Shown here in pieces: positions 3,197 through 37,724 of a stretch of 37,724 bases of DNA. Every line of letters begins with the position of its first letter. Positions within the stretch are counted from its first letter, which is position 1. Position numbers and translations under genes: made by a program. Origin of the DNA: a virus (Duplodnaviria; Caudoviricetes); IMG/VR virus record IMGVR_UViG_3300020057_000084, positions 1 through 37,724 of that record; one strand, given 5' to 3'. The notes below the pieces were generated by a model, which was given only the letters and a program-made list of their open reading frames with translations, was not told the DNA's origin and did no database searches.

Positions 3197-3408
3197 TATT
3201 GATTACCTCCTTTTTTGAGTTGTTCATGGAGCCCTTGTGGGGAGACATGTTTGATGTCTTCTGCAATTTTGGGGTTTGTCCATTTGCGGGTCAATCGTGC
3301 TATATCACCAACAAACTCATTAAGCTCAGGGTCTTCCCGTAAGAACTTAACAACCTCAGGATGAAGGTTTGCTATCCTTGATGTCTTTTGATATACTTTG
3401 TCGCTCAT
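3196..3408 (-). CDS. Hypothetical protein, first gene of the leftward early operon
   Basis: TAATG overlap with the next gene; lies downstream of a sigma70-like promoter. Confidence 0.6.
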   Translation of the reverse strand: MSDKVYQKTSRIANLHPEVVKFLREDPELNEFVGDIARLTRKWTNPKIAEDIKHVSPQGLHEQLKKGGNQ

Positions 3409-3514
3409 AAGATTTGGTTCTCAAATCTTAAGGTGACTAATTGTTAGTGGTGGTTAAATTTTCTAACCACCCCAACTGCTATTCCTTGAAGATTTAAAGT
3501 TTCCTTCTGTAGGT

Positions 3515-3543
3515 ATTAAATCATATGTATTGATAATTGTCAA
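3515..3543 (-). promoter_or_regulatory. Sigma70-like early promoter
   Basis: TTGACA-17bp-TTTAAT. Confidence 0.6.
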
Positions 3544-3565
3544 CTAGTAAAATGTGTTGTAATAT
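3537..3565 (+). promoter_or_regulatory. Divergent sigma70-like promoter for the integrase fragment
   Basis: TTGTCA-17bp-TAATAT. Its -35 overlaps that of the early promoter within the near-palindrome TTGATAATTGTCAA. Confidence 0.5.
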
Positions 3566-3592
3566 CAATATCTGCCAATTCCATGAGCGAGC

Positions 3593-3991
3593 ATGGACAA
3601 CTTAGAAGGCTTTAAGCTTTGGCTTTACAGAAATGGTAGAGCTAGAAGCACTATAGCCACAAAACTAGACCTTATTGCCCGAATATTAAGGGACGTGAGT
3701 CCTATTAATCAAGGTGGGGTCGAAGAATACCTCTTAACCCTATACGAAGATGGTAGAACAGCTAGTTACCTGAATACTTTTATAGACTCCTTAAGACTTT
3801 ACCAGAGATATTTAAACGAGGAGGAATGGAATATTCCGTACTTCAAAGAGAAGGAAACATTCAAGACATTACTCTCTAATGAGGAAATTAAATCCATCCT
3901 TGAACTAAAACCACCCAGAAACGGTGAGAAAGAGTCTCGGGCAGGGGCTCTTTCTAGTATTCCAGGGTTACACTGGGATTATATACATTAA
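3593..3991 (+). pseudogene. Tyrosine recombinase N-terminal (core-binding) domain; catalytic domain absent
   Basis: FxxWLxxxGRAxSTI, SYLNTFIDSLRLY and LLSNEEIKSIL. The frame then runs into the convergent gene with no R..H-x-x-R..Y residues. Confidence 0.65.
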
Positions 3992-4340
3992 CCACTTCCA
4001 CCCGCTTGCCCTCTCTTTCTTTTACTCTATGATAAGCCTCACTATAACTACCAGTCTGGAATTCATCAGCGGGGAATCTTTGTTGATTCATAGCTACCTT
4101 CTTTGCTACAGCCTCACCAAGATTGATACCACGCTTATTACAGTAATCCGCTAAGAAGTTAAACACGTCTGCTGCCTCAAGCCCCATCTCGGCATGTTCC
4201 CATATTGTCGGGTCATCTCGGTCTGACTGGATTAACTCATCAACTTCTCCCATCAATCTATACAAGGAGGATAGGGGATGACCCTCCTGCATCAATGGCC
4301 TCTCTTCTATAAATTGTTGTTGTAGTCTCTGTTCAATCAT
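3954..4340 (-). CDS. MazG-like nucleotide pyrophosphohydrolase; probable start 4340
   Basis: LMGEVDEL...EAADV acidic motif and INLGEAVAKKVAMNQQRFP. Confidence 0.75.
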   Translation of the reverse strand: MIEQRLQQQFIEERPLMQEGHPLSSLYRLMGEVDELIQSDRDDPTIWEHAEMGLEAADVFNFLADYCNKRGINLGEAVAKKVAMNQQRFPADEFQTGSYSEAYHRVKEREGKRVEVVNVYNPSVTLEY

Positions 4341-4443
4341 TTTTGCACTTATGCTTTCTATAACACTCTTCACAAACAAAGTGTTCCTTTGATTGGCAGA
4401 GTATGTATCCTTTTTGTGGTGAACATCTACAGTGTTTTTTCAT
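4333..4443 (-). CDS. 36-aa Cys/His-rich mini-protein
   Basis: MKKHCRCSPQKGYILCQSKEHFVCEECYRKHKCKND; GAGGGAG upstream; ATGATTGA overlap with the MazG-like gene. Confidence 0.5.
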   Translation of the reverse strand: MKKHCRCSPQKGYILCQSKEHFVCEECYRKHKCKND

Positions 4444-4744
4444 TCATTTTGACTCCCTCTAATAGTTTCTGGAGAGCTGCAAGAGTCCTCCATGCACATT
4501 TTCCCAAATGCAAAATTCCATCCGTATCATATAGATTCCCAGAAGCATGATCAGTTAAGTGTCTAGTGAGTGCGTCTAGTTCATCAGTCGACTTATTTCT
4601 GTCCCAATGCAAGGGAGTACTGGGATGATGTTGATCGTTACCCGCTTGACTAACTTGCGATACATATTTGATAGCATCTGGAAAGTACGCTAAAACCCCG
4701 GAATAAATCGGGGTAGATTTTCTAGCCTTTGCCTCTTTTGTCAT
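4427..4744 (-). CDS. dATP/dGTP diphosphohydrolase domain protein (DUF5664-like)
   Basis: RKxxPxxSGVLxYFPDA, GNDQHHP, LHWDR, DALTRHL, DTDGILH and AWRxLA. Confidence 0.8.
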   Translation of the reverse strand: MTKEAKARKSTPIYSGVLAYFPDAIKYVSQVSQAGNDQHHPSTPLHWDRNKSTDELDALTRHLTDHASGNLYDTDGILHLGKCAWRTLAALQKLLEGVKMNEKTL

Positions 4745-4747
4745 AGT

Positions 4748-4833
4748 GAGCCAGAAAGGGAATGACCCTTATGTAACGGGTCGGCGAAACCCAAATCAAG
4801 CCTTTAGTTACATCGCTACGTTAGCGCTGGCTC
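4748..4833 (-). ncRNA. Putative four-way-junction (cloverleaf-like) RNA
   Basis: GAGCCAG/CTGGCTC closes CGCTA/TAGCG, ATGTAAC/GTTACAT (with inner GGGTT/GACCC) and AAGGG/CCCTT. Confidence 0.55.
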
Positions 4834-4837
4834 TTGA

Positions 4838-4891
4838 TGGAGGTGTGGAGCTTTGCACTCCTTACCTATTACTAGGTCGAATTACACCCCC
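4838..4891 (-). ncRNA. Putative minimal tmRNA-like / tRNA-Ala-like RNA
   Basis: GGGGGTG/CACCTCC acceptor stem with G3.U70 and discriminator A; TTCGAC after the 5' strand; GTAA-capped stem; GGAG-TGCAAAG-CTCC T-arm. Confidence 0.6.
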
Positions 4892-5994
4892 TTGCGAGGT
4901 CTACCCGGACCTCTTTTAACATCTAGTCCAATTTCCTGACGTAGGTTATAATCTTCTCCTGAATACACAACCCCATCTGGTCCTATAAATGCTGGCGTTC
5001 CATGCTTCAAAACAACAGAATATGGCTGTTCACCTACTTTTTTGTCCCAAAAATATACCCCAAAACCCTGTGACCAATTTGAATTGGCTTTTTTTACAAA
5101 ATGAAGGTTATCTCTTGAAAAACCTCCGTGCACTATTCCAGTCTTTAATTCTCCAAGAGCAGTGCGTTCTTCGTGATACTGATTTCTATTTATATGTGCT
5201 GTTGTTACGCTTACTCCTGCATCCTGTACTTCCAATTTAGCTATGTGTGCTTTTGCTCCCGCTCTCTGGCCATGCCAAAAAACTCTATCGTGCCATTTAT
5301 AATACCTACCTTGACCATATGGTACAACTTCCCAGTCGGAGAGTCCCCACATTTCTTCTGGCGATTTAACCCATTCCTCTATACCATCAGTTTTATTAGC
5401 CATATAGTTTCCAAACCTATGGTCATGGTTTCCAAATATAAAAACTCTCTTAGCGTTTGGTAGTTGGTCTGTCATTTTGGAAATAAACCATTGCATGGCT
5501 GCAATTTCATCTGCCATTGTGCCTGCCTGATCAGGGGTAGACCCAAATTTATTGGCTTGCTCCATATCAGCAATATCACCGTTCAATACTAGGTGAGTTA
5601 TTTTCTCCTTATTTGCGTCTACATACTGCATGAAAGCACCGACTGCTTCATCATCAGCATTTCTTAAAAATTGAAAATCATTAGCTACAACCAACATCTC
5701 CGTATATTGTTTTGGGGATTTTTCCTTTAATTCTTTGGCTCTTTTTCTCACCTGTTTCTCTCGCAAAGCTCCAATTGGGGTAGGCTCTTGTGGAGCTATC
5801 CCCTCTAAGATTATTGGGTCAGAAAGAATACCTCCTTCTTCCTGCGTAATTTGCGTGAGCTCTTGTCTAACCTGTTCAATGGTTGTGATGAGGGCAGGTC
5901 TACGGATAGGCTCTGGGGGCATAGGATAGCCCACAACAGAGGTTTCAGGTCTTTCATAGTTAATTGGTTGTTCATGTTGTTGTTGCACTTCCAT
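4882..5994 (-). CDS. Calcineurin-like metallophosphoesterase with C-terminal AT-hook-like motif
   Basis: DxQ, GDxxD, GNHD, WHG and AHxN motifs; terminal KRGPGRPRK. Confidence 0.8.
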   Translation of the reverse strand: MEVQQQHEQPINYERPETSVVGYPMPPEPIRRPALITTIEQVRQELTQITQEEGGILSDPIILEGIAPQEPTPIGALREKQVRKRAKELKEKSPKQYTEMLVVANDFQFLRNADDEAVGAFMQYVDANKEKITHLVLNGDIADMEQANKFGSTPDQAGTMADEIAAMQWFISKMTDQLPNAKRVFIFGNHDHRFGNYMANKTDGIEEWVKSPEEMWGLSDWEVVPYGQGRYYKWHDRVFWHGQRAGAKAHIAKLEVQDAGVSVTTAHINRNQYHEERTALGELKTGIVHGGFSRDNLHFVKKANSNWSQGFGVYFWDKKVGEQPYSVVLKHGTPAFIGPDGVVYSGEDYNLRQEIGLDVKRGPGRPRKGV

Positions 5995-6271
5995 CTTCTA
6001 GGGTCCTTTGCTTTGCCTCATAAATATCTTTAACTACTAAATGATGTCCTTCCGCATATAACTCCTGCCTTGCTCCTGCCTCTATGCCTGTAAAGATCGT
6101 ATAGATGGTGTTATCCACCACTAGCCTTTTATCTTTCCCATGAGTTACCGCGACAGTGTCCTTCTCAGGATGCTCTAGTCTCGCATCTTCATAAACCTGT
6201 CTCACTCTGATTGCATTCCCCAAGGTTACAATGTTATGTAGATCCTTAGGACTGTACCCTTCGATTTCCAT
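5972..6271 (-). CDS. Hypothetical protein
   Basis: 99-aa ORF overlapping the downstream gene. Confidence 0.6.
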   Translation of the reverse strand: MEIEGYSPKDLHNIVTLGNAIRVRQVYEDARLEHPEKDTVAVTHGKDKRLVVDNTIYTIFTGIEAGARQELYAEGHHLVVKDIYEAKQRTLEDGSATTT

Positions 6272-6354
6272 ATTAGTTGGTGGTTTCTAACCCCTTTATC
6301 CACCTAATGCCTGCTGGACTTATCCGAGTTTTTCAAGGGCTCAGGCAATTCTTT

Positions 6355-6597
6355 TTACTGCCCTCCAACTTTCTTGGCAAGCTGGTATGTTCCTGTTCCT
6401 ACTAATGCTGATACTATTCCTGTTTCGATTGTTAATCCGAATACGTGGAAAAATCCTAAGATTATCCCAATTACTAATGCTAATAGAACTCCGAAAACCG
6501 TATTTACATCAACCTCTGTGTAAACCTGCAAAACTGAAACTATCCCTTTAACTATCCCAATAATTGCTGCGACTGCCACTATATTTATCTGATCCAT
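6355..6597 (-). CDS. Holin
   Basis: 80 aa with two to three TM helices and a basic C-terminus; adjacent to the amidase. Confidence 0.75.
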   Translation of the reverse strand: MDQINIVAVAAIIGIVKGIVSVLQVYTEVDVNTVFGVLLALVIGIILGFFHVFGLTIETGIVSALVGTGTYQLAKKVGGQ

Positions 6598-6608
6598 ATG
6601 CTCACCCC

Positions 6609-7559
6609 CTACCTAACCCATTCCCAGAACTTGTCCGAAATAGATTTTCTACTTTTCCCTTTAAATAAGTTTTTCCAGAACTCCTCTAATATCGGCTCGT
6701 AATGATCTATTACTGGCTCGAGTGGAGCTTGTTTCTCTTCTTTTAATTTAGTGATTTGGTTATTAAGTTCTGTAATCTGATGCTCGAGCTCTGTATTCTT
6801 AACCTCAAGATCTCTATCGTGTACAGCATCCTTCTCCATCGCAGCATTAAGATCAATAATTTTGTTGTTAAGCGTTTGATTTGCTGATTTAAGTTCTGCA
6901 ATTTCATCTCTCAACCTCACCACCTCAGTATTAAGATCAAAATTTTCCTTAGTTAATTCGTTAATTTGTTCGGTTTTTGCTTCCAATTCACGTATAGTTT
7001 TTTCAGCTTCAGGTTTATCTACAAACTCTCCAGCTTGTACTCTTACTAAAACATCCACTGCAACCTTCATGGAATCTTTATTGTCTAGGTCGTAACCTTT
7101 ATAACTTGTCATAGAACCACCTCCTTTAGCGATTGAAATTATCTTATCTATATTCATAGTTCCAGGACACTGAGTTGCGGATACTTCTTTATGTCCTACT
7201 ATGTGGGTTCTGTCTAGTGGAATGTTATGTCTTTGACAAATCTCTTTTACTAATTGCCCTGAAGATTGATAGGTTGCCTCACTAGCTACCCTGTCTGGGG
7301 CTGCTGAATGCTCTATGCCGATACTTTTCTGGTTGTAAGCATACTTACCAGCATGATATGCTGTATGTGCCTCATCTACCCATTGAAAAACCGTACTATT
7401 TTCTATTCCATAATGGGCTGATGCTCCCCTTGCTGGGTTCTTAAATGTGGCATCTGCTGACGCTAAACTTCCTACGATCCAGTGAATTACGACATGCGTT
7501 ATCGGCTTTCGGCTTTTATCGTAATTATTTGTCGGTATTGTTTGTTTAACTATATTCAT
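6609..7559 (-). CDS. Endolysin: N-acetylmuramoyl-L-alanine amidase (Amidase_2) plus coiled coil
   Basis: VVIHW, SAHY, AYHAG, SIGIE, GHKE and TQCPG motifs; heptad-rich C-terminal half. Confidence 0.9.
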   Translation of the reverse strand: MNIVKQTIPTNNYDKSRKPITHVVIHWIVGSLASADATFKNPARGASAHYGIENSTVFQWVDEAHTAYHAGKYAYNQKSIGIEHSAAPDRVASEATYQSSGQLVKEICQRHNIPLDRTHIVGHKEVSATQCPGTMNIDKIISIAKGGGSMTSYKGYDLDNKDSMKVAVDVLVRVQAGEFVDKPEAEKTIRELEAKTEQINELTKENFDLNTEVVRLRDEIAELKSANQTLNNKIIDLNAAMEKDAVHDRDLEVKNTELEHQITELNNQITKLKEEKQAPLEPVIDHYEPILEEFWKNLFKGKSRKSISDKFWEWVR

Positions 7560-14560: not shown

Positions 14561-14591
14561 AGTATACAGGAGGTCAACTAGAGGTTAGCAA
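14561..14591 (-). promoter_or_regulatory. Late-type promoter, leaderless geometry
   Basis: TTGCTA-ACCTCT..19bp-TATACT-7nt-ATG (14553). Confidence 0.65.
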
Positions 14592-15312
14592 GTGCCTTAT
14601 GGATAGAGCCGTTGCCACAAAATACCTCCTGATTATCAAATCCCCATTCAGCCATAAATACTTTTTTCATGTCTTGGAAGTATGATGATAAGTCAGGAGC
14701 ATGGAGTGTCTGACCTTCTCCGTGCTGTACGCTCATGCCATAATTAACGTATAGTTTGAGTCCTGCACGCATTACCCTTGTCCAGTAATCGTGGTCTTCA
14801 AAATTACAAGGGAAATATAGATCTTCCCTGAAATAACCAGCTTTATCAATTGTGCCCTGGGTTAACATGAAGCAAGCGCCACTAAACCATTTATAATTTT
14901 CAATTATTCCTATCCCAGGAGGCAAGTGTTCAACGTGCGGATTAACAACACCAGCATCAGGCATATCCATAGCCTCCTGCATGGCCTCAAGCCAGCCCTT
15001 CCTTACGATCACGTCATCCCCTATGATTACCTTATATTTACCCCGTGAAGCTAGTAGTCCTGCGTTCCATCCCCTACTTATACCCATATTCTCATCAAAA
15101 CGAATGTAGGTATTACACTTACTAGTCCAGTCATGCCTCTGGGTCGAGCCATTATCAACTATTATTAACTCATAATCCTGACTACTATTCTTAACTGCCG
15201 ATATGCACTCCTCAGCCATTTCAACTAATTCGCGAGTCCTATGGTACATGAGTACGATTACTGAGTATTTGGGCTTCTTAAGATTAGGATTCATATAACT
15301 CCTCCCAATCAA
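14578..15312 (-). CDS. GT2-family glycosyltransferase
   Basis: SVIVL, ELIIVDNGS, NxG...WNAG, GDDV, GACFM and EDHD. Confidence 0.9.
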   Translation of the reverse strand: MIGRSYMNPNLKKPKYSVIVLMYHRTRELVEMAEECISAVKNSSQDYELIIVDNGSTQRHDWTSKCNTYIRFDENMGISRGWNAGLLASRGKYKVIIGDDVIVRKGWLEAMQEAMDMPDAGVVNPHVEHLPPGIGIIENYKWFSGACFMLTQGTIDKAGYFREDLYFPCNFEDHDYWTRVMRAGLKLYVNYGMSVQHGEGQTLHAPDLSSYFQDMKKVFMAEWGFDNQEVFCGNGSIHKALANL

Positions 15313-15958
15313 TAGAGGGCGCCATGTAATCAGCTACCATATGAGTAGCCATGCTCGGTATTGGTACATACAGATTATGTCCCTTAGCTAATAACTCATA
15401 CCATACATCTGCATCTAAATAGCCATATTTTTTAAATATCGCATAGTTGTCTTTAAATATTTTATTCTTAACTGCAAATGTCATAGTATTGCGCTCCGTA
15501 CTTCTCCAATGCGTATCTCCTACTAAATCTATAATTACTTGATTAGAATGTAACTTGTGATCCACGTAAAAATTAAGATGGTCGTAAGGAGAAACCAAAC
15601 CTAACTCATCTAATCCTTTTACAAACTCCTTGCCTATATTTTCTCTATATATATAATCACATTCTTGGAAAAGAATGTCATCGTCTTGATTATAAGCTAT
15701 GTCGTAAGCTTTAAGCATAGTTTCGTTAATGCCTATCTCCGTAAAGTGAATCTCATGTTCAAAAGGAATAATATCTTTAATCAACTTTTCATACTCCGGC
15801 TCACAAAAATCACATAAGAATATAACTTTAGGATCAATATCTCTAAATGCTTCTCTAAAAGACTTAAGACAAATCTTATTTAACATAAATTTATCTTCTT
15901 GGTAAACTGGAGAGGGATTTGTACTTGGAATACCACACATTCTATATACGACTAAGAT
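15284..15958 (-). CDS. GT-A-fold glycosyltransferase-like protein; possible ATC start at 15958 (track start 15940)
   Basis: ILFQECDY (DxD-like), VSPYDH, TMTFA and PIPSMATH; sits inside the glycosylation cluster. Confidence 0.6.
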   Translation of the reverse strand: MLVVYRMCGIPSTNPSPVYQEDKFMLNKICLKSFREAFRDIDPKVIFLCDFCEPEYEKLIKDIIPFEHEIHFTEIGINETMLKAYDIAYNQDDDILFQECDYIYRENIGKEFVKGLDELGLVSPYDHLNFYVDHKLHSNQVIIDLVGDTHWRSTERNTMTFAVKNKIFKDNYAIFKKYGYLDADVWYELLAKGHNLYVPIPSMATHMVADYMAPSIDWEELYES

Positions 15959-16854
15959 ATTTCATTCTCCTCACTAATAATTGGTGGTAAGTTTAAAAAT
16001 TCCCAGGTTTTCTTTAAACCTTCCTCTAGCGGTGTCTCATGGTAGTTAGTCATCGTGTTTAGCTTCTTATGTGAGGCTAGGAAATTCCAAATCTCTTGAG
16101 TTCTGGCAGGCTGATGTACTACCCTAGCTCTTTTGCCTGAAATCTTCTCAATTGTCTCTAGCAGTGTGGCTATCTCTATATCTAGTGAACTACCTACATT
16201 TACGGTCTGATTCCTAAAAGAATCGGTCATCCCCTCTACTAATACATCTACTACATCATCTACATAACTAAATGCTCTTTTCATCTTGCCTTTTCCAAAT
16301 AAGGTAACTTTCTTATCCTCCATAATATTACGCATGATCAAAGCCACTACATTCTTATAGGGATTAGTCATGTCTTGATGAGGACCGTAGATGTTGTGAG
16401 GTCTGAAAATTGTATAGTCAAAGTTATGTACCTTAGCTAGTATCTTAAGTATCTGCTCACAGGCTAGCTTATTGACTCCGTACACATCTTTAGGCTTAGG
16501 TATATCATCCTCGCCATAAGGAACTTCTACCTCTCCATAAACTGCTACGCTTGAGGTATATATAAATCGTTTTACCTTAACATTAATTGAGGGGACTAGA
16601 ACATTTAAGAAGATATTAAGATTACGCTCTGTCATGTCTTGAGGAGATACTTGACCACGACTTTCGGCACTTTGGGCAGCTAGATGATAAACTATATCGG
16701 GCTTGTGATGCTCGATAAATTTCTTTGTTATTTCTTTATCTCGTAAATCTACTCCTAATCTTCTTGAAACAGGTATAACTTTATGATCTTCATGTAAGCG
16801 CTTGTACAAATTAGTTCCTATTAACCCTGTAGCTCCTGTAATTAGTACTTTCAT
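15952..16854 (-). CDS. NAD-dependent nucleotide-sugar epimerase / dehydratase / reductase (extended SDR)
   Basis: TGATGLIG, HLAA, SSVAVYG, YGVNK and RPHNIYGP. Confidence 0.92.
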   Translation of the reverse strand: MKVLITGATGLIGTNLYKRLHEDHKVIPVSRRLGVDLRDKEITKKFIEHHKPDIVYHLAAQSAESRGQVSPQDMTERNLNIFLNVLVPSINVKVKRFIYTSSVAVYGEVEVPYGEDDIPKPKDVYGVNKLACEQILKILAKVHNFDYTIFRPHNIYGPHQDMTNPYKNVVALIMRNIMEDKKVTLFGKGKMKRAFSYVDDVVDVLVEGMTDSFRNQTVNVGSSLDIEIATLLETIEKISGKRARVVHQPARTQEIWNFLASHKKLNTMTNYHETPLEEGLKKTWEFLNLPPIISEENEIS

Positions 16855-18008
16855 GTGTAAAACTCTTTAATCGATTCGATTATATAATCTACCATCTCAT
16901 CTGTTAAGTCCGGATGCACACTTACAAACATTCCCTCAGTCATAACCTTATCTGATATAGGTAATTCTGTAGCTATTCTGCCAAAGTTAAAAAAGCCTGG
17001 TTGTCTTGTAATATTCCCTCCAAAGATAGTTCTAGTTTCTATTTGTCTATTCTCTAAGAACTCTCTTAATGCTCCACGTTTCTTAGCAAATAAAGGAAAT
17101 CCAAACCAACTACAATCAGGATAGTTGTTTAATAACTCAATTTCTGGAATAGATTTTAAACTGTCATATAGTTTATCGTAATTGTGTAGACGTTTCTCTT
17201 TAATAATAGGAAGTTTTCTGAGTTGCGTTCTTCCCATAGCGCACTGCAATTCTAAAGGCTTTACATTAAATCCCATATATTGAAATAGATAGCGTGCCGG
17301 GTAATCTTCCGGGATACCCTTGAGTTTTTTCTTATCATCTATACCGTCATAACCGCCCATTCTTCCCCATTCCCTAAGTGAAGCTGCACGCCTTCCGTAG
17401 TCATCGTTATTAGTAAATACTGCTCCACCTTCTCCCATACAAAGTATGTGTGCAGCATGAAATGAAGTCGCACAGATGTCGAAGTATGATTCAATAGGCT
17501 TTCCTTTCCAAGTGCCTCCAAAGCCATCTGCATTATCAAGAATCGTTATTAAGTTATGCTTTTTAGCAATTTTAAGTATTTTATCTATCTGAGGGATACT
17601 TCCTGCTATCGCTACGACTAAAATAGCCTCAGTTTCTGAAGTAATAGCTTTTTCGATCAAATCAGGGTTCATTCCTAGCGTATCTGCCTCTACATCTATA
17701 AAGACTGGTTTTAGATGATTGTAGTAGAGAGAGCTTATTGTTGTAGGAAAATGAACTGCACCTGTAATAATCTCTGATTCCTCTGGAAGATTAAGTGCTG
17801 CGTAAGCTACCAATAACGCTGAAGAGCCTGAGTTGGTTAGCGTTGCATACTTTAAACCTGTAAACTCTGCTAATTCCTTCTCAAGAGCCTTACCTTCCTC
17901 GTCTATTGTCCACCAATTTCTATCTAAGACTTTTTGAATAGCATCAAAATCTTCCTTGTCCGTAAAAGCTCCGCCATATTTTAGTCTGTCTATTCCTTTT
18001 TTAAACAT
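16851..18008 (-). CDS. DegT/DnrJ-fold PLP enzyme, His-type (ColD/RfbH-like 3-dehydratase)
   Basis: NSGSSAL; TSFHAAHILCMGEGG has His at the position of the usual Lys; TRTIFGGNI. Confidence 0.85.
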   Translation of the reverse strand: MFKKGIDRLKYGGAFTDKEDFDAIQKVLDRNWWTIDEEGKALEKELAEFTGLKYATLTNSGSSALLVAYAALNLPEESEIITGAVHFPTTISSLYYNHLKPVFIDVEADTLGMNPDLIEKAITSETEAILVVAIAGSIPQIDKILKIAKKHNLITILDNADGFGGTWKGKPIESYFDICATSFHAAHILCMGEGGAVFTNNDDYGRRAASLREWGRMGGYDGIDDKKKLKGIPEDYPARYLFQYMGFNVKPLELQCAMGRTQLRKLPIIKEKRLHNYDKLYDSLKSIPEIELLNNYPDCSWFGFPLFAKKRGALREFLENRQIETRTIFGGNITRQPGFFNFGRIATELPISDKVMTEGMFVSVHPDLTDEMVDYIIESIKEFYT

Positions 18009-18474
18009 TTTTAAATCCCATCGTTATTGCTCGTTTTTCAGAAACATGGTCATATTTAACATGGCACTTTCTACATAGCCATATCCAATCTGTTAAATCT
18101 CTTTTATATTCCCCGCTTTTATTAGCGAGATCAAGAGGCTTAACTTCACTGCATAAATTACAAGCTAGAGGTTTAGCTAGTTTTTTATGTACCCATTCAT
18201 GTAAAGCTGAATAACCAACCTTATCACCTTTCCACATAGGATTATTTTTCCCTGAAAATTTATTAGTACCTACAAACCAAGGAATCTGCCCCTTATTAGC
18301 AATACTTATTTTTCTTTTATGGTCTTCGGATAGTTTTAAACCACGGTTATGGTGTCCATGAATATATTGTTTTGGCTGTCCCTTAATCCAGCCATATATT
18401 CTTGACGTATATTTAGCTATTGGTGCGGAATTACCACAATCACATTTACAAAAATTATTTAAATCCTTCTTCAT
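18001..18474 (-). CDS. Free-standing HNH endonuclease with NUMOD3-like motif
   Basis: CKCDCG, SEDHKRKISIANKG, GYSALHEWV, CNLC and LCRKCH. Confidence 0.8.
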   Translation of the reverse strand: MKKDLNNFCKCDCGNSAPIAKYTSRIYGWIKGQPKQYIHGHHNRGLKLSEDHKRKISIANKGQIPWFVGTNKFSGKNNPMWKGDKVGYSALHEWVHKKLAKPLACNLCSEVKPLDLANKSGEYKRDLTDWIWLCRKCHVKYDHVSEKRAITMGFKNV

Positions 18475-20020
18475 ATTTCTCTAACCAAGGCTGTACAATT
18501 TCTAACATATTATCTCTCATCCATTGTACAGTATCTTTATTATCTATTTTAGGTGGTATTGTATATTGTAAATCAATTTGGTCATCTATTTCTTGGGTTC
18601 TTATAAGAGGCAATTTACCTTGTTCTGTCATTTCTTTCATCCACAGAAATTGTGGATCGTTTAAGCGTCTTTCTCTTAACAAACCGTGCTCAGGCGTTCC
18701 CTCAAGAGTTTTCCAGTGATCTATACAAGTAGCTACATTTGTTTCGTCAATCATTATCCTAAAGCCTGACCTTAGCGCCCTATAAGCAAAGTCAGTGTTA
18801 TCAAAACCCAGTCCCTCATCAAAGAACTCCCACCAGCCACCAAGTGCCTCTGCTATGTTTCTTGGTATTGCTCCAAAGTTCTGCTCAAAGTCATAAGGGT
18901 TTTGGGAGTATCTAAGCTCCTTATTTTGTATCCGTACATTCCTGCGCATAAACTTTCCTTTAACATCAAGATTGCCCCTAAACCAATCCTCTGATTCGAT
19001 ATCAGGTTTGATCTTGGGAGTAAAGTACATATCAACTGGCGCAATAAGACAATCCGGATTCTTCCTATGCACACTGACCAATTCTTCAATGGAGGTTGGG
19101 GAGATTAGTATGAAGTCCTGTAGTAGAACCATAAGTTCCCCTGTTGAGTTTTGAAAGCCTGTATTATTAGCGTTCACAAGCCCGTACGTTCGCGCTACAG
19201 CCCTTTTCTTGCCCCTGACGTACTTTATGTCAAGCCCGTACTTTTTAGCATATTCCGAGGCCATGATTGAGCGATCAGTTTTGTAGTCATCAACTATGAC
19301 CCATTCAAAGTTTTTATAGGTCTGTTTTGACAAGTTATCTGCCATGATGTTCCACCACCCACGTCTATTTGTAGGAGTAATGATTGAGACCTTAATAGAT
19401 TGATCCTTGCTCTTAAACTCTTTTGCCCAGTCGATTGCTATCTTATCCCATGTATAATCTTTTGCAGCACCTATCCCTTCAGTTTGTAATTCCTCCCACT
19501 TGTCTTTATTTCCCATTAAATGAAGTAACTCCTTAATGTATTCTTTCTTTACGCTTGAGTTATAAATATCGCCCTTGACTATCACCCTCCCCTCCGTGTA
19601 TTCGCCAAGAGCTGCGAGATCAAGGGTTATTGGCACACAGCCATCAAGTTGTGCTTCCATAGCTGAGATACAAAATATTTCGGTAAAATCACTGGTGTAG
19701 GCTAGAATCCCACACTTTTTCCTTAGATCCTGAAGCTCTTTTTTACCCAATCTGCCATGATGCACAATCCCCTCCTGATCCATTAACGCAGAAACTCTCT
19801 CTTTCCATGCAAGGCGTTCCGTGTTGCCAAGTGTCACTGCGTCGAATAGGTCCCAGCCATAAGCTATGTGAAGCTCTGCATCCTCAAAAGCTTCTTTAAT
19901 CTCTGGCCACATAGTCAAGAGGATATTTAAGCCTCTATCATATGAGGACGCCCATAATAATTTATGTTGTCTTATTGTGCCTGCCATATAATCCTCTCCG
20001 TACAATTTCTCATATCCCAT
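18455..20020 (-). CDS. Glycosyltransferase: C-terminal half of a GT-B enzyme fused to a GT2 domain
   Basis: SSYDRGL and EIFCISAMEAQ (GT-B donor domain), then VSIITPT, EWVIVDD, LQD and GFDNTD (GT2). Confidence 0.85.
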   Translation of the reverse strand: MGYEKLYGEDYMAGTIRQHKLLWASSYDRGLNILLTMWPEIKEAFEDAELHIAYGWDLFDAVTLGNTERLAWKERVSALMDQEGIVHHGRLGKKELQDLRKKCGILAYTSDFTEIFCISAMEAQLDGCVPITLDLAALGEYTEGRVIVKGDIYNSSVKKEYIKELLHLMGNKDKWEELQTEGIGAAKDYTWDKIAIDWAKEFKSKDQSIKVSIITPTNRRGWWNIMADNLSKQTYKNFEWVIVDDYKTDRSIMASEYAKKYGLDIKYVRGKKRAVARTYGLVNANNTGFQNSTGELMVLLQDFILISPTSIEELVSVHRKNPDCLIAPVDMYFTPKIKPDIESEDWFRGNLDVKGKFMRRNVRIQNKELRYSQNPYDFEQNFGAIPRNIAEALGGWWEFFDEGLGFDNTDFAYRALRSGFRIMIDETNVATCIDHWKTLEGTPEHGLLRERRLNDPQFLWMKEMTEQGKLPLIRTQEIDDQIDLQYTIPPKIDNKDTVQWMRDNMLEIVQPWLEKYEEGFK

Positions 20021-21785
20021 TCCCCACTATTAAGAACTTCTCGTCAGGTATCTCTGGCGCACACTCCCTGTGGTACTTACTCTTAACCATGAATTTATCA
20101 ATGTGTGGCAATAATTCTTTATAGTCGACGCCTCCCCAGATATCATGGAGATCAACCAAGAACTTCTTAGCTTTAACTTTATTAGCTAGCCCTCCATTTC
20201 TCCACTGGACAAATATGTTGAAGTTGTCTCTGGGGTTGAAGTGGAAATAGGGTAAGTAAGTAACGCCATTAATAATTCCCTTATCTTGGCCAGGATCACC
20301 ATACACTGTCACCTTATACCCTAGCTTTGTCCATTCCTCAGCCAGTTTGATAACAGCAGTCTCGCTTCCACCAATACCCTTACTCAGAGACTTACCCGAC
20401 CATTCCTCAAAGTGTTTACCAAAGTTTGCAAAGTAACATATCTCATTTGGCTCCCATGTTCTCGGAGTTGAATACTTATTTATAAGTCCATGTGCAAAAG
20501 GCTGAGCAATTATTGCCTCTGGTAGTTCCTTAATTAGTGGCGCGATCCTTTCTGTCTCCCCTATCTCATCTAAGTATCTTGCGAGCTTGTCTACATTCCC
20601 GCATGCTTCATTCAATTTATCTAAACTCTCAAGCATAACGATAGTATCGTAGTTTTGGGGTGTTGGAGCCTCTGAGTAGAGCAGGTTAGCTGACTCAAGG
20701 GCTTTTTTGGTATCTCTCTGGTAGTTATAGTTAAGTTTGAGGGAAAGTTCTGCAAACATTAACTTCATCGCCTTGTAATTAGTAAGGTTTGAACCCTTAT
20801 TATCTATGTTCATATTTGAGGCTATTTCAGCCCAATATTTAGCAAAAGCGTACTCCTTGAGGTTAAAATAAGCTGTAGCTAGTCTTATATATATAAGTGG
20901 CTGATAGGGCCATTCTGCTATTGCCCTGTGGAACACCTCAGTAGCTTCCTTAAACTCCTGTTTCTTACCACAGACTATCCCCATCTGTTCTAATGCCGTA
21001 GCTCGCTCTTCGTTCCAGCCTGATTTAGTCAGATAGTCCTCGCCCATCTCAATGACCTTGCCCCACTGTTCGGGGATGTCCTGCTCTGCATAGATTTTCA
21101 TTAGATAGAGTAGCGTTCTGGGGTCCACCATGTTATTAAGTCGTTCATCCTTTAGCTCAAGCTCTAGTATTCTCTTGTTTCTATCCATCTTGGCCTGAAT
21201 TGCCTCTGGATCTTTAACCTGAGCCGTGTGCATCACCACAATGTCTTGCCCCTTCCCCGGCTCGTATGGATAGGTGGTATAGTTGTTTTTAACACCTGTT
21301 ACGGGTACTGGTGTTTCATGTAGTCGCTTACGCCAAATAGTCACACCTGGTTTAAGTAGGCGCTCTCGCATTTGCTCCATCTCTACGCTTTTTAATGTTT
21401 CTGGGCTTGGCTCTCCACTAAACTCACAGCCATACCAGTATGTGAAGAACACAACATCTTGTGCATTTGCTTTTGCTATTGCTCCAACTTCTCTTAGTTT
21501 CTCTCCACCTATTAAGATATCGTCAGCGTCCATCCAGAAGATAAAGTCAGCATCTTCCTTAACCTGGCTGAAATTAAAAGTACGCATGTCAGCGAAATTA
21601 TCATTCCATTTCTTATAAGAGTAGTTGACTCCTCTTTTCTCCATGTGATACTGGATCTTGTCAGTCTTTTCTCCATTGGCTGTAACGTATACAGCATCAA
21701 CAAATGGCTGCACTGAATCTATCGCCTTGTTAAGGCTAGAAAGCTCTGAGTTGTCTTTAACTATTAGGCAGGCAACAATCTTCAT
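20010..21785 (-). CDS. GT2-TPR glycosyltransferase fused to the N-terminal half of a GT-B enzyme
   Basis: CLIVKD, WNDNFADMR, WMDADD, HE, TPR-like helices, then GIGGSETAV...VTVY...KSKYH...NGI. Confidence 0.85.
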   Translation of the reverse strand: MKIVACLIVKDNSELSSLNKAIDSVQPFVDAVYVTANGEKTDKIQYHMEKRGVNYSYKKWNDNFADMRTFNFSQVKEDADFIFWMDADDILIGGEKLREVGAIAKANAQDVVFFTYWYGCEFSGEPSPETLKSVEMEQMRERLLKPGVTIWRKRLHETPVPVTGVKNNYTTYPYEPGKGQDIVVMHTAQVKDPEAIQAKMDRNKRILELELKDERLNNMVDPRTLLYLMKIYAEQDIPEQWGKVIEMGEDYLTKSGWNEERATALEQMGIVCGKKQEFKEATEVFHRAIAEWPYQPLIYIRLATAYFNLKEYAFAKYWAEIASNMNIDNKGSNLTNYKAMKLMFAELSLKLNYNYQRDTKKALESANLLYSEAPTPQNYDTIVMLESLDKLNEACGNVDKLARYLDEIGETERIAPLIKELPEAIIAQPFAHGLINKYSTPRTWEPNEICYFANFGKHFEEWSGKSLSKGIGGSETAVIKLAEEWTKLGYKVTVYGDPGQDKGIINGVTYLPYFHFNPRDNFNIFVQWRNGGLANKVKAKKFLVDLHDIWGGVDYKELLPHIDKFMVKSKYHRECAPEIPDEKFLIVGNGI

Positions 21786-33883: not shown

Positions 33884-33914
33884 AGGATAAGGGAGACTGT
33901 AGGGACGTTTTCAA
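33884..33914 (-). promoter_or_regulatory. Late-type promoter driving a short RNA
   Basis: TTGAAA-ACGTCC..19bp-TATCCT. Confidence 0.55.
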
Positions 33915-35464
33915 TACACCAAATCATGACTGATTGGTTCTTTCGTATTCTCTAGCACTGATTTGAGGGCAAGTACATCAAAGAAACTATCTCCACTAAG
34001 CAAGAATGCTTCTATCGCATTAGATGGATACTCTTGCTTAAAGTACCTACCCAGCTCTTTCTCCTTGCCTAGTAAGAACTGTTGGTCATAGAACTCACTA
34101 GCTCCATAAAATAATGGCTTAAAACCCGTTTCCCCCAGCAATGATCTATCCCAAAAGTCCTTAAGAAAGCCCATACCATTAGCAGTTGTCTCAATTATTA
34201 CTTTCCCATCTGGCACTACGGCTTGCATTACTCCTGCAAATAGCTTCTGGGCATCAGGATAGAACGCAAACTCAGACAAATGTAGGTTAGTAATTGTCTT
34301 ACTCCTACCAAAATCCCTATTATCAGCAGTTCCAATCGTGTAGCGTGAGTTCATGTCCGTATTGTAGAGCTCATATTTTGAGTTGTACTTTAGTGGAACT
34401 GTGGTATCCGCAATCTCTTCAAAAACCTTAATATACCGTTTAACACGATCAAGTAGCTCTGTAGCATTGTCTGATATATCAGCAACAATCACTGAGCGTG
34501 AGTTTTCCTTAGAGAGAAAGTCCTTAGTAAACATTGCCAGGATAAGACTGCTGTTGTGAGACACAAAGCCCTCAGCTATAAAAGTTTTGGTAGAAGTCTG
34601 TAAATCGTACATCTTTTGTTTACCTATAGGCTCAATGTTCTCTATCGTAGTCCAAGCAACAGACGAGCGCTTGCCTGGCATCTCTAAGCCTTCCCACCAG
34701 TTAATAGTTATCAATCTAACAGGTCTGGCCTTGCCTATAATCTCAAAAAGTTCATTCATGCGACAGAATGATATTGTACCCACAGGCTTGTTTGCCCGAT
34801 GATCTCTATAGTCCCAGTCAACTCTAGTAGAATAAGGCTCGGCATACAGGCTCATTTTATCCCATACAGCTCCAGCCACCTGTGTTACCTGTAATGATGC
34901 TCCACCTGATGACTTAGCCCGAAGATGAGCTTCACCATCAAGTAATCCACCAAACCACGCATCAAAGTGTGTAGGCTTATCCCAAGGGTAGGCAATGTGT
35001 CGTATAGCATAACCTGGCTTGAGGCTCTGTACTTCCCTCCATTTAATGTTTGTAGGTGACTTAGGCGGGTGGGTAAGGAACCTGTGTTGGCCTGTCGCAA
35101 TCAGTATCCGTCCGTCTGACATAGTTATCTTATAAGCTTCTTCATGAACTGTACGGATACCCTCAACGACTGAGGTACGCATCTTCCTGCCTATGCCTCT
35201 CGTGCCTGAGTTTTCGTCAACGCCTATTAGCTCCTGTCCTACCCTGGCATCCTTGATAGGTATCCACCTTAAGTCTTTAGTCAGTATTTGAGTATTGCCA
35301 TCAAGACAAAACCCCTGCTGTCTTGCTTTAATTATTAGATCACGCCCGGTAAGATCCTGAGTTAGATACCTATCCTGTATAGTGTTTAGCTCAAATGGGA
35401 CCTCAGCACCAGACTTGTCTATGATCCTGAAATACTTTTCTATAAAGTCCTTAGTTTTCATCAT
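33911..35464 (-). CDS. terL: Terminase large subunit, N-terminal ATPase domain, intein-containing
   Basis: LNxxQ, Walker A KARQQGF|SS, Walker B LHLSE, ETTANG and FKQEYP; no nuclease domain. Confidence 0.9.
   Translation of the reverse strand: MMKTKDFIEKYFRIIDKSGAEVPFELNTIQDRYLTQDLTGRDLIIKARQQGFCLDGNTQILTKDLRWIPIKDARVGQELIGVDENSGTRGIGRKMRTSVVEGIRTVHEEAYKITMSDGRILIATGQHRFLTHPPKSPTNIKWREVQSLKPGYAIRHIAYPWDKPTHFDAWFGGLLDGEAHLRAKSSGGASLQVTQVAGAVWDKMSLYAEPYSTRVDWDYRDHRANKPVGTISFCRMNELFEIIGKARPVRLITINWWEGLEMPGKRSSVAWTTIENIEPIGKQKMYDLQTSTKTFIAEGFVSHNSSLILAMFTKDFLSKENSRSVIVADISDNATELLDRVKRYIKVFEEIADTTVPLKYNSKYELYNTDMNSRYTIGTADNRDFGRSKTITNLHLSEFAFYPDAQKLFAGVMQAVVPDGKVIIETTANGMGFLKDFWDRSLLGETGFKPLFYGASEFYDQQFLLGKEKELGRYFKQEYPSNAIEAFLLSGDSFFDVLALKSVLENTKEPISHDLVY
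34553..35308 (-). mobile_element. 252-aa intein with a LAGLIDADG-like motif
   Basis: Starts CLDGNT; block B ATGQHRF; WFGGLLDGEAH; ends MYDLQT...VSHN before Ser+1. Confidence 0.92.
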
Positions 35465-37232: not shown

Positions 37233-37724
37233 TTATTTCTCTAATCCATTCTTTTTAGTAAAGATAGTCTTTCCGTTCCACCCACACCCACACTCTTTTT
37301 TATGTAACTTCTCAAGAGCTGGCATGTTATCTTGGTATGCTTTATCCCATGCCTGGTTTGCTTTAGCCCATACCTGGTATGCTTTATCCCATGCCTGGTA
37401 TGCTTTATCCCATGCCTGGCTTGCTTTAGCCCATACCAGGTTTGCTTTATCCCATGCCTGGCTTGCTTTAACCCGTGCTTGGTATGCTTTATCCGATGCT
37501 TGGTATGCTTTAACCGATGCTTGGTATGCTTTAACCCATGTTTGGCTTGCTTTAACAAACTCACCAGGTAACTTACCCTTAACTGGTTTGATAAGTTTTA
37601 GCCTTAACTCAATCTCATCCTCTGGCTTCTCTTCCTTAATATATTTAATCCTGTTCTTTAAGGGTTCAGTTAATGACTCCACCAGTATTTCGTGGTGGAT
37701 ATGGAAATAGTATTTTAATTTCAT
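37233..37724 (-). CDS. Heptad-repeat hypothetical protein; ATG is at the window edge, so the start may lie further upstream
   Basis: FHIHHE N-terminal motif, about 11 repeats of AWDKAYQ, and LHKKECGCGW. Confidence 0.7.
   Translation of the reverse strand: MKLKYYFHIHHEILVESLTEPLKNRIKYIKEEKPEDEIELRLKLIKPVKGKLPGEFVKASQTWVKAYQASVKAYQASDKAYQARVKASQAWDKANLVWAKASQAWDKAYQAWDKAYQVWAKANQAWDKAYQDNMPALEKLHKKECGCGWNGKTIFTKKNGLEK
37332..37556. repeat. 21-bp coding tandem repeat, about 10.7 units
   Basis: Consensus (c/t)tggtatgctttatcccatgc. Confidence 0.9.

Follow-up and report, generated by a model that had tools for sequence, protein, structure and literature searches.

The minus strand of a phage contig carries, at positions 4838-4891, a 54-nt element (element 1) that takes the form of tmRNA's tRNA-like domain (TLD), with alanine identity elements and no mRNA-like domain; its sequence, its fold, a descriptor match and a covariance-model match identify it as a mini-tmRNA variant consisting of the TLD only. 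Element 1 is a real RNA-shaped feature, and it probably works like the RNA of phage DS6A, as a derived variant of that type. By analogy with such RNAs, it is tentatively read as a processed, alanylated competitor of the host tmRNA for SmpB, a role whose chances are judged to be a little below even.

The window, which is the whole stretch of DNA that was analysed, is a linear phage contig of 37,724 nt that is 86% complete, and no match to an SmpB gene is found in it. Elements 1 and 2 (the latter is described below) sit in a 137-nt gap on the minus strand between a metallophosphoesterase gene (4882-5994, minus strand; PF00149, phrog_221, 370 aa) and a dATP/dGTP diphosphohydrolase gene (4427-4744, minus strand; PF18909), which lies directly downstream of the RNA pair and is the same neighbour as in a sister phage. 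The stop codon of the metallophosphoesterase gene lies inside element 1, whose 5' strand covers the last 10 nt of that ORF (5994-4882), in agreement with the original prediction of an overlap with its last codons. A promoter scan returns 5 sites against 7.7 expected, none of which is on the minus strand upstream of element 1 in 3300-6700, and no terminator is found behind element 1. As no promoter stands out, both RNAs are likely released from the operon transcript. Elsewhere in the window, several other features are apparent: a terminase-like ORF (33911-35464, minus strand) with an apparent intein-like insertion (Cys start, His-Asn end), seen in translation only; a cluster (14578-21785, minus strand) whose translations resemble glycosyltransferases, an NAD-dependent epimerase and a sugar aminotransferase; at the left end (19-186), a 36-bp repeat in tandem; a protein of 7-residue repeats at the right end (37233-37724); and a 132-aa ORF (3593-3991, plus strand) that resembles the N-terminal part of a tyrosine integrase, runs against the operon direction and has no Pfam or PHROG match at the cut-offs used.

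The 54-nt sequence is present at 4891-4838 exactly as originally quoted, and the parts that had been named in it are all found, namely G3.U70, the discriminator A, the UCGA end, a GUAA-capped 5-bp stem, G53-C61, U54 and A58. From sequence and fold, the 5' strand of the acceptor (4884-4891) runs from G1 to U8, with G3 at 4889, and overlaps the phosphoesterase codons. The D region (4877-4883), delimited by sequence and family comparison, is 7 nt long (8 nt in the 7-bp register) and ends in UCGA. In the fold, it is followed by a closed helix-2 stub (4865-4876) that replaces the mRNA-like domain and consists of 4 bp and a GUAA loop, with a fifth A-U pair possible. The sequence then gives a 3-nt linker, UAA (4862-4864), and a T arm (4847-4861), also supported by the model match, with a 4-bp stem and a 7-nt loop containing U54, C56 and A58. 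The 3' strand of the acceptor (4838-4846, all parts being on the minus strand) places U70 at 4841 and the discriminator A73 at 4838, so that sequence and fold together give an acceptor with G1-C72, G3.U70 and A73. UCA stands where CCA would be encoded, which bears out the expected lack of CCA. The D region is stemless and leads into the closed helix 2 without a tag frame, and none of the three frames read through the element gives a plausible tag. A 151-nt contig from a second study (depth 2.3) agrees with the window throughout 4848-4998, so the odd features of the D region, the linker and the T-loop are unlikely to be assembly errors; run X1, possibly the source of the window itself, likewise shows no differences at the site.

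Element 1 folds as a three-way junction with a minimum free energy of -24.2 kcal/mol and an ensemble frequency of 0.78. The fold has a z-score of -4.64 (about -4.6) and is equalled by none of 200 shuffles, and the pair probabilities of all helices are 0.90-1.0 in a 270-nt context. In the favoured fold, an 8-bp acceptor and a 4-bp T stem make up 12 bp and leave the 3-nt linker; the 12-bp acceptor-T stack, with G53-C61, U54 and A58 kept, is thus reached as 8+4 and not as 7+5. The A.A mismatch previously described in the T stem is real in the 7+5 register only, as U8 pairs with that A in the favoured 8+4 fold (probability 0.90). The UAA linker of this fold sits exactly where tmRNAs carry GAC. A TLD descriptor gives one match in the window and none in 150 first-order random genomes of equal size, a lenient test because the descriptor was written after element 1 had been seen.

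Standard annotation does not call element 1. ARAGORN finds no genes in the whole window, and Rfam gives no matches in the window at E values up to 5 or in 4700-4950 at E values up to 10; neither RF00023 (tmRNA) nor RF02544 matches element 1, and no permuted (two-piece) tmRNA is matched in the window. The Infernal/Rfam and ARAGORN runs suggested earlier therefore come back empty for it. A two-piece tmRNA is also rejected because the 5' end of element 1 precedes its 3' end within one closed fold. A tRNA-Ala is rejected on the lack of a D stem, a 4-nt loop in place of the 7-nt anticodon loop and the lack of an ARAGORN call, and a standard tmRNA (RF00023) is rejected since helix 2 closes after 4 nt and no resume codon, tag or pseudoknots are present. 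The silence of ARAGORN and Rfam would also be expected if element 1 were no RNA gene but a fold arising by chance, a terminator or what is left of an integration site. However, ARAGORN is likewise silent on the TLD of each of the 23 family loci submitted to it, the descriptor has no match in the random genomes, no U-tract terminator is present on the minus strand, and a TLD also occupies this site in the sister phage. An attachment-site fragment would, moreover, be unlike element 1, in which the two tmRNA ends are joined by a closed hairpin. This explanation is largely refuted by the random-genome and sister-site results, and it is considered extremely improbable.

A search of a viral collection with a pattern of tmRNA end motifs, on which no pairing rule was imposed, yields 119 viral loci from 28 of the 64 collection parts, and 90 of the 119 have perfect stems (7/7 acceptor and 5/5 T-stem pairs). 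When at least 6/7 acceptor pairs and 5/5 T-stem pairs are required, 93 loci remain, corresponding to 70 unique sequences of 59-73 nt; CCA is encoded in 62 of the 93 and absent from 31. Fifty-two of the 70 unique members were aligned, with near-duplicates and the integrase-adjacent L077 left out. In this alignment, 99.2% of the cells are paired and 11 of the 16 pairs show changes on both sides. The acceptor and T stems of the aligned members were selected for pairing, whereas helix 2 was not, and helix 2 is 96.5% paired with both-side changes in 4 of 4 pairs. G3.U70 is invariant across the 52 members, in part by construction of the pattern. No neighbour gene common to the family is found with PHROGs, and blastn of the member L003 returns T-arm or attachment-site pieces only. 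Among the family loci, L003 also contains a RAGATH-24 RNA (RF03049; L003:43-114, plus strand) 2.4 kb upstream of its mini-tmRNA, and the mini-tmRNAs of L038, L068 and L071 (TLD at 2501, 2501 and 799) begin 0-6 nt past the stop codon of a DnaB-like helicase gene.

The covariance model built from the 52 aligned members (R1) matches element 1 over the full length of the RNA (model positions 1-66) with a marginal score of 30.8 bits (E = 1.7e-4), the published TLD-only RNA of DS6A with 50.5 bits, and the sister phage TLD with 35.1 bits. Among 80 rescored loci, the perfect-stem members, most of which are training sequences, score 49-77 bits, and element 1 falls below every one of them except L077 (23.8 bits). 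True tRNAs in the same search reach at most 23.3 bits (a tRNA-Leu of L018 called by ARAGORN), which is below element 1. RF00023 matches all 9 canonical members on which it was tested (DS6A among them), 7 of them above the gathering score, and gives no match at the sister locus L152. The view of element 1 as a tmRNA tRNA-like domain without a message domain thus has support from one model that covers it, a covarying phage family and DS6A, and from an alanine TLD at the same site in the sister phage. The covariation expected of it is seen in the stems of the family, with the TLD kept at the site in the sister phage, and not for the exact 54-nt form, for which no other phage copy was found.

A comparison with the family reveals where element 1 departs from it. 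The D region is 7-8 nt long in element 1, compared with 10-14 nt in all 70 unique members and 9 nt in L291. The linker is GAC in 57 of the 70 unique members, CAC in 6, GAU in 4 and one of three singletons in the others, and it is UAA in none; the middle A is kept in the UAA of element 1. With its 54 nt, short D region, UAA linker and lack of encoded CCA, element 1 is the shortest and most deviant copy seen, and because of the D-region length and the lost GAC linker it is classed as a derived variant and not as a canonical member. Compact forms exist independently of element 1: L291 and L323 are 55-56 nt long, have a 9-nt D region and a 4-bp tetraloop stub, keep GAC and do not encode CCA. A short-form pattern returns 20 loci, none with both stems intact, and a T-loop-free version of it returns 73 loci, of which only L291 and L323 are TLD-shaped and the rest look like reverse-strand tRNAs or chance. 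A pattern with the T-loop of the sister type gives one match and blastn of the region against GenBank phages one 35-nt match, both attributable to chance. Throughout these searches, the exact 54-nt form is found in this strain group only and in no other phage.

Element 2 (4747-4833, minus strand), which had escaped the original prediction, begins 4 nt after element 1 and ends 2 nt before the next start codon. Its 87 nt fold into a tRNA/TLD shape with a 7-bp acceptor carrying G3-C70 (non-alanine) and A73, a four-way junction and a shortened T-loop; the fold has a z-score of -3.3, 1 of 200 shuffles is as good, and neither Rfam nor ARAGORN calls it. A 29-nt loop of element 2 (4778-4806, minus strand) is identical at 28 of 29 positions to the inner loop of the sister TLD. 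A search for this arm pattern in viral contigs gives a single match inside a coding sequence, judged to be chance, and the arm has no further copy there. Several roles for the arm were considered and rejected: as a relic of tmRNA pseudoknot 1, it is no better than shuffles (67 of 200); as an antisense RNA to the phage genome, its longest complementary-strand match is 8 nt; and as a mini tag frame, the 10-codon frame of the sister ends in a stop that is absent from the window, and a loop of 29 nt is probably not large enough to go around the 30S head. A comparison of the arm with the phage genome gives one 12-nt same-strand match. The combination of a non-alanine twin and a shared 29-nt arm beside a TLD-only element is new here.

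The sister phage was obtained from a metagenome scan with a phosphoesterase alignment, which returned 11 loci comprising the window contig, the sister phage (L152, L153) and 8 more distant loci; a single-protein scan of viral contigs with the phosphoesterase finds no relative. The sister phosphoesterase is 83-90% identical to the window protein; the phosphoesterases P0003-P0008 are 69-78% identical, and P0004 and P0091 are each encoded on a contig of 38,598 nt. The sister lacks the 54-nt form of element 1; the corresponding site, immediately ahead of the diphosphohydrolase gene, holds a single 98-nt alanine TLD (L152:4570-4667), whose D region is 12 nt long, whose linker is CAC and whose T-loop has U58. 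Relative to this TLD, the acceptor of element 1 has pair 6-67 changed on both sides, and the acceptor of element 2 has four pairs changed on both sides, with G3.U70 replaced by G3-C70 and 7 of 7 pairs still formed. These sequences suggest that an ancestral long TLD was duplicated, with element 1 having kept the alanine acceptor and element 2 the inner arm, although recombination with another tRNA-like gene may provide an alternative history.

In either history, element 1 might be a decaying spare copy of a sister-type TLD with no current function. It has the second-lowest R1 score among the TLD-shaped phage elements tested, is not matched by Rfam, is absent from the sister phage and is found in this strain group only, all of which would fit decay. 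However, neutral decay would break pairs, and is disfavoured for this reason: every helix is perfectly paired, and the acceptor changes relative to the sister are two-sided in one pair of element 1 and four of element 2, in which one further pair is changed on one side with all 7 still paired. A functionless copy is rated unlikely.

The surroundings of the TLD vary. Among 81 family contexts, the window included, 4 have a tRNA-shaped neighbour within 15 nt: two are ordinary tRNAs, one is a second alanine-acceptor element (L059) and one is element 2. In L059 (1252-1386, plus strand), two anticodon-less elements with alanine acceptors (G3.U70) stand in tandem, 2 nt apart. No TLD is present at 8 more distant phosphoesterase loci (6 from the metagenome scan plus L120 and L141), L157 ends just after the gene, and R1 finds no TLD-only RNA in the records behind L120 and L141. 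Since R1 also has no match at 80 dGTP-diphosphohydrolase loci, the TLD-only RNA is not tied to the diphosphohydrolase gene. In the sister phage, an HNH endonuclease gene lies on the opposite strand between the phosphoesterase gene and the TLD, and turnover of the site driven by homing is possible. This HNH gene (L152:4039-4530 and L153:910-1401, both minus strand) replaces the C-terminal RGRPRK motif of the phosphoesterase and element 1. L020 and L067 have HNH genes as well, 171-301 nt downstream of their TLDs.

A close relative of the phosphoesterase (46%) is found in one cellular genome, G002, which is also the only one of 401 genomes of its class matched by a phosphoesterase profile; the link of the host to this class rests on one bin and is weak. 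Genomes of the class are 0.5-1.8 Mb (G002, 1.3 Mb), a tmRNA is present in 40 of 41 of them, and SmpB in 5 of 5 tested. CCA is encoded in 9 of 30 class tmRNAs and lacking in 21, A58 is present in 10 of 26 with 7-nt T-loops (L254-L282, L247), and three T-loops appear by eye to have 5-6 nt, so a missing CCA, and T-loops as odd as those in the sister TLD and element 2, are within the range of the class. Element 1 leaves this range in its short D region and its UAA linker, as the D region is 10-13 nt long in 28 of 30 parsed class tmRNAs and a UAA linker occurs in 0 of 30. Class-wide patterns match 1 of 401 genomes each, which is chance level given 5 and 4 matches in the controls. A 42.5-kb phage-like contig of G002 (L141) carries a 90-nt tRNA-Thr-like call opposite the operon.

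The reading of element 1 as a competitor of the host tmRNA involves the following steps. Both elements would be transcribed within the minus-strand operon and freed by RNase P cleavage at 4891 and 4833, and host enzymes would trim the 3' ends and add CCA. Element 1 would then be alanylated through G3.U70 and A73 on its 12-bp minihelix, bind SmpB and compete for SmpB and stalled ribosomes, by which trans-translation would be inhibited and the tagging and destruction of phage proteins damped, as in the analogous case of the DS6A-like RNA. RNase P is known to make the 5' ends of tmRNA, and G3.U70 and A73 are the keys for AlaRS (PMC3968760). A DS6A-like TLD inhibits tmRNA, perhaps through SmpB titration (PMC4131195, PMC11915505, citing Mao 2009). 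The pairing within the family, the covariation of helix 2, the R1 matches to DS6A, the sister TLD and element 1, and the independent compact forms L291 and L323 are consistent with this role, and the missing CCA and odd T-loops are ordinary. The lack of an RF00023 match, the score of 30.8 bits, the lack of a second 54-nt copy, the absence from the sister phage, the lack of a TLD at the 8 more distant phosphoesterase loci and the 80 diphosphohydrolase loci, and a host link based on one bin count against it. The GAC linker belongs to the SmpB site, and its loss from element 1 argues against SmpB binding. Additionally, SmpB docks at the elbow and keeps the D-loop in an extended form (PMC3968760), so the short D region and UAA linker both affect the SmpB site.

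These changes could instead mean that SmpB binding has been lost and that element 1 is an alanine-accepting minihelix, serving as an RNase P processing signal, a sink for AlaRS and EF-Tu, or a decoy against defences that target tRNAs. Element 1 keeps an intact T-loop, G3.U70, A73 and 12-bp acceptor-T helix while its D region and linker are not intact, as such a minihelix would allow. A processing signal would free element 2 and cut the phosphoesterase message 10 nt before its stop. The phosphoesterase stop indeed lies inside element 1, a geometry also described for Carsonella smpB/ssrA (PMC4131195), and at 53 loci with enough flank, the window included, the upstream ORF ends inside the TLD in 7 and within 30 nt of it in 7 more; however, the other 6 ORFs that stop inside a TLD have no PHROG match and may not be genes. 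Against this, element 1 retains the UCGA end and the closed helix-2 stub, both superfluous in a plain minihelix, and no defence target has been identified. A minihelix without SmpB binding is possible but somewhat unlikely.

Element 1 could also be a tag-less rescuer, in which the alanyl-TLD and SmpB enter non-stop ribosomes and add alanines, releasing phage proteins without a degradation tag. Polyalanine synthesis in vitro by SmpB and a TLD fragment needs no mRNA (PMC3929946, citing Shimizu and Ueda 2006), and mitochondria and some plastids have retained tmRNAs that lack a CDS (PMC11915505). Such a rescuer would need a second rescue factor because no stop codon in a readable message recruits release factors; it is subject to the same defects in the SmpB site, and the only in-cell test cited showed inhibition. 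This function is regarded as quite improbable. A more elaborate proposal treats both elements as a module split from one mini-tmRNA into a 54-nt 8+4 alanine acceptor and an arm-bearing non-alanine twin. A cut at 4891 would strip the phosphoesterase stop codon from the message, so that release by RNase P would make phosphoesterase output track the shutdown of host tagging, an RNA-only feedback switch reading ribosome rescue in a phage that maybe infects ultra-small (Patescibacteria-like) bacteria. A switch of this kind is decidedly unlikely.

The novelty implied by the original prediction was too high, since a TLD-only phage tmRNA is already known and published, that of Mycobacterium phage DS6A (JN698994.1, 28478-28557; tmID 11587; PMC4131195, PMC11915505). 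Like element 1, the DS6A RNA is phage-encoded, has tmRNA ends joined by a closed helix 2, carries G3.U70, A73 and a UCGA-ended D region without a tag frame, and matches R1. It differs in being 80 nt long in place of 54, with a 7+5 and not an 8+4 stack, a 13-nt D region against 7-8 nt and a CAC linker against UAA, and it reaches RF00023 (43.2 bits), which element 1 does not; the stop-codon overlap and the non-alanine twin are features of element 1 only. Standard tmRNA (RF00023), which acts with SmpB, shares the alanine acceptor, the stemless D region, helix 2 at the variable-arm position and the T arm, whereas element 1 is about one seventh of its length and has no mRNA-like domain, pseudoknot ring, resume codon or tag. 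The CDS-less organellar tmRNAs (RF02544) also have a TLD without a tag frame, and the plastid genes of Mallomonadaceae (~65 nt) are similar in size (PMC11915505); however, these are the only tmRNA of their organelle and mostly permuted (PMC11915505), while element 1 is phage-borne, its host likely has a full tmRNA, and it does not match RF02544. In Carsonella smpB-ssrA, the TLD likewise contains the stop of the upstream gene, and RNA maturation would thereby yield a non-stop mRNA (PMC4131195); element 1, by contrast, is tag-less and has a phage metallophosphoesterase gene upstream. In the open-access literature, no paper on a broad phage TLD-only family, the 8+4 form or a non-alanine twin was found. 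The part of the PMC11915505 supplement consulted contains no phage or Patescibacteria names, and the full database could hold short entries.

The curated tmRNA database (2025) counts 9 'standard, no CDS' genes, with one phage example named (PMC11915505), whereas a single scan here gives about 90 TLD-only RNAs in under half of the viral collection, most of them invisible to ARAGORN. Being the smallest form seen and having no GAC linker, element 1 offers a natural means to learn which features SmpB, AlaRS and RNase P require. The role of the arm is directly testable, since the pair of elements, set against the single RNA of the sister phage, separates the acceptor from the inner arm. If these RNAs do damp trans-translation, they would represent an RNA-based route by which phages protect their own proteins.
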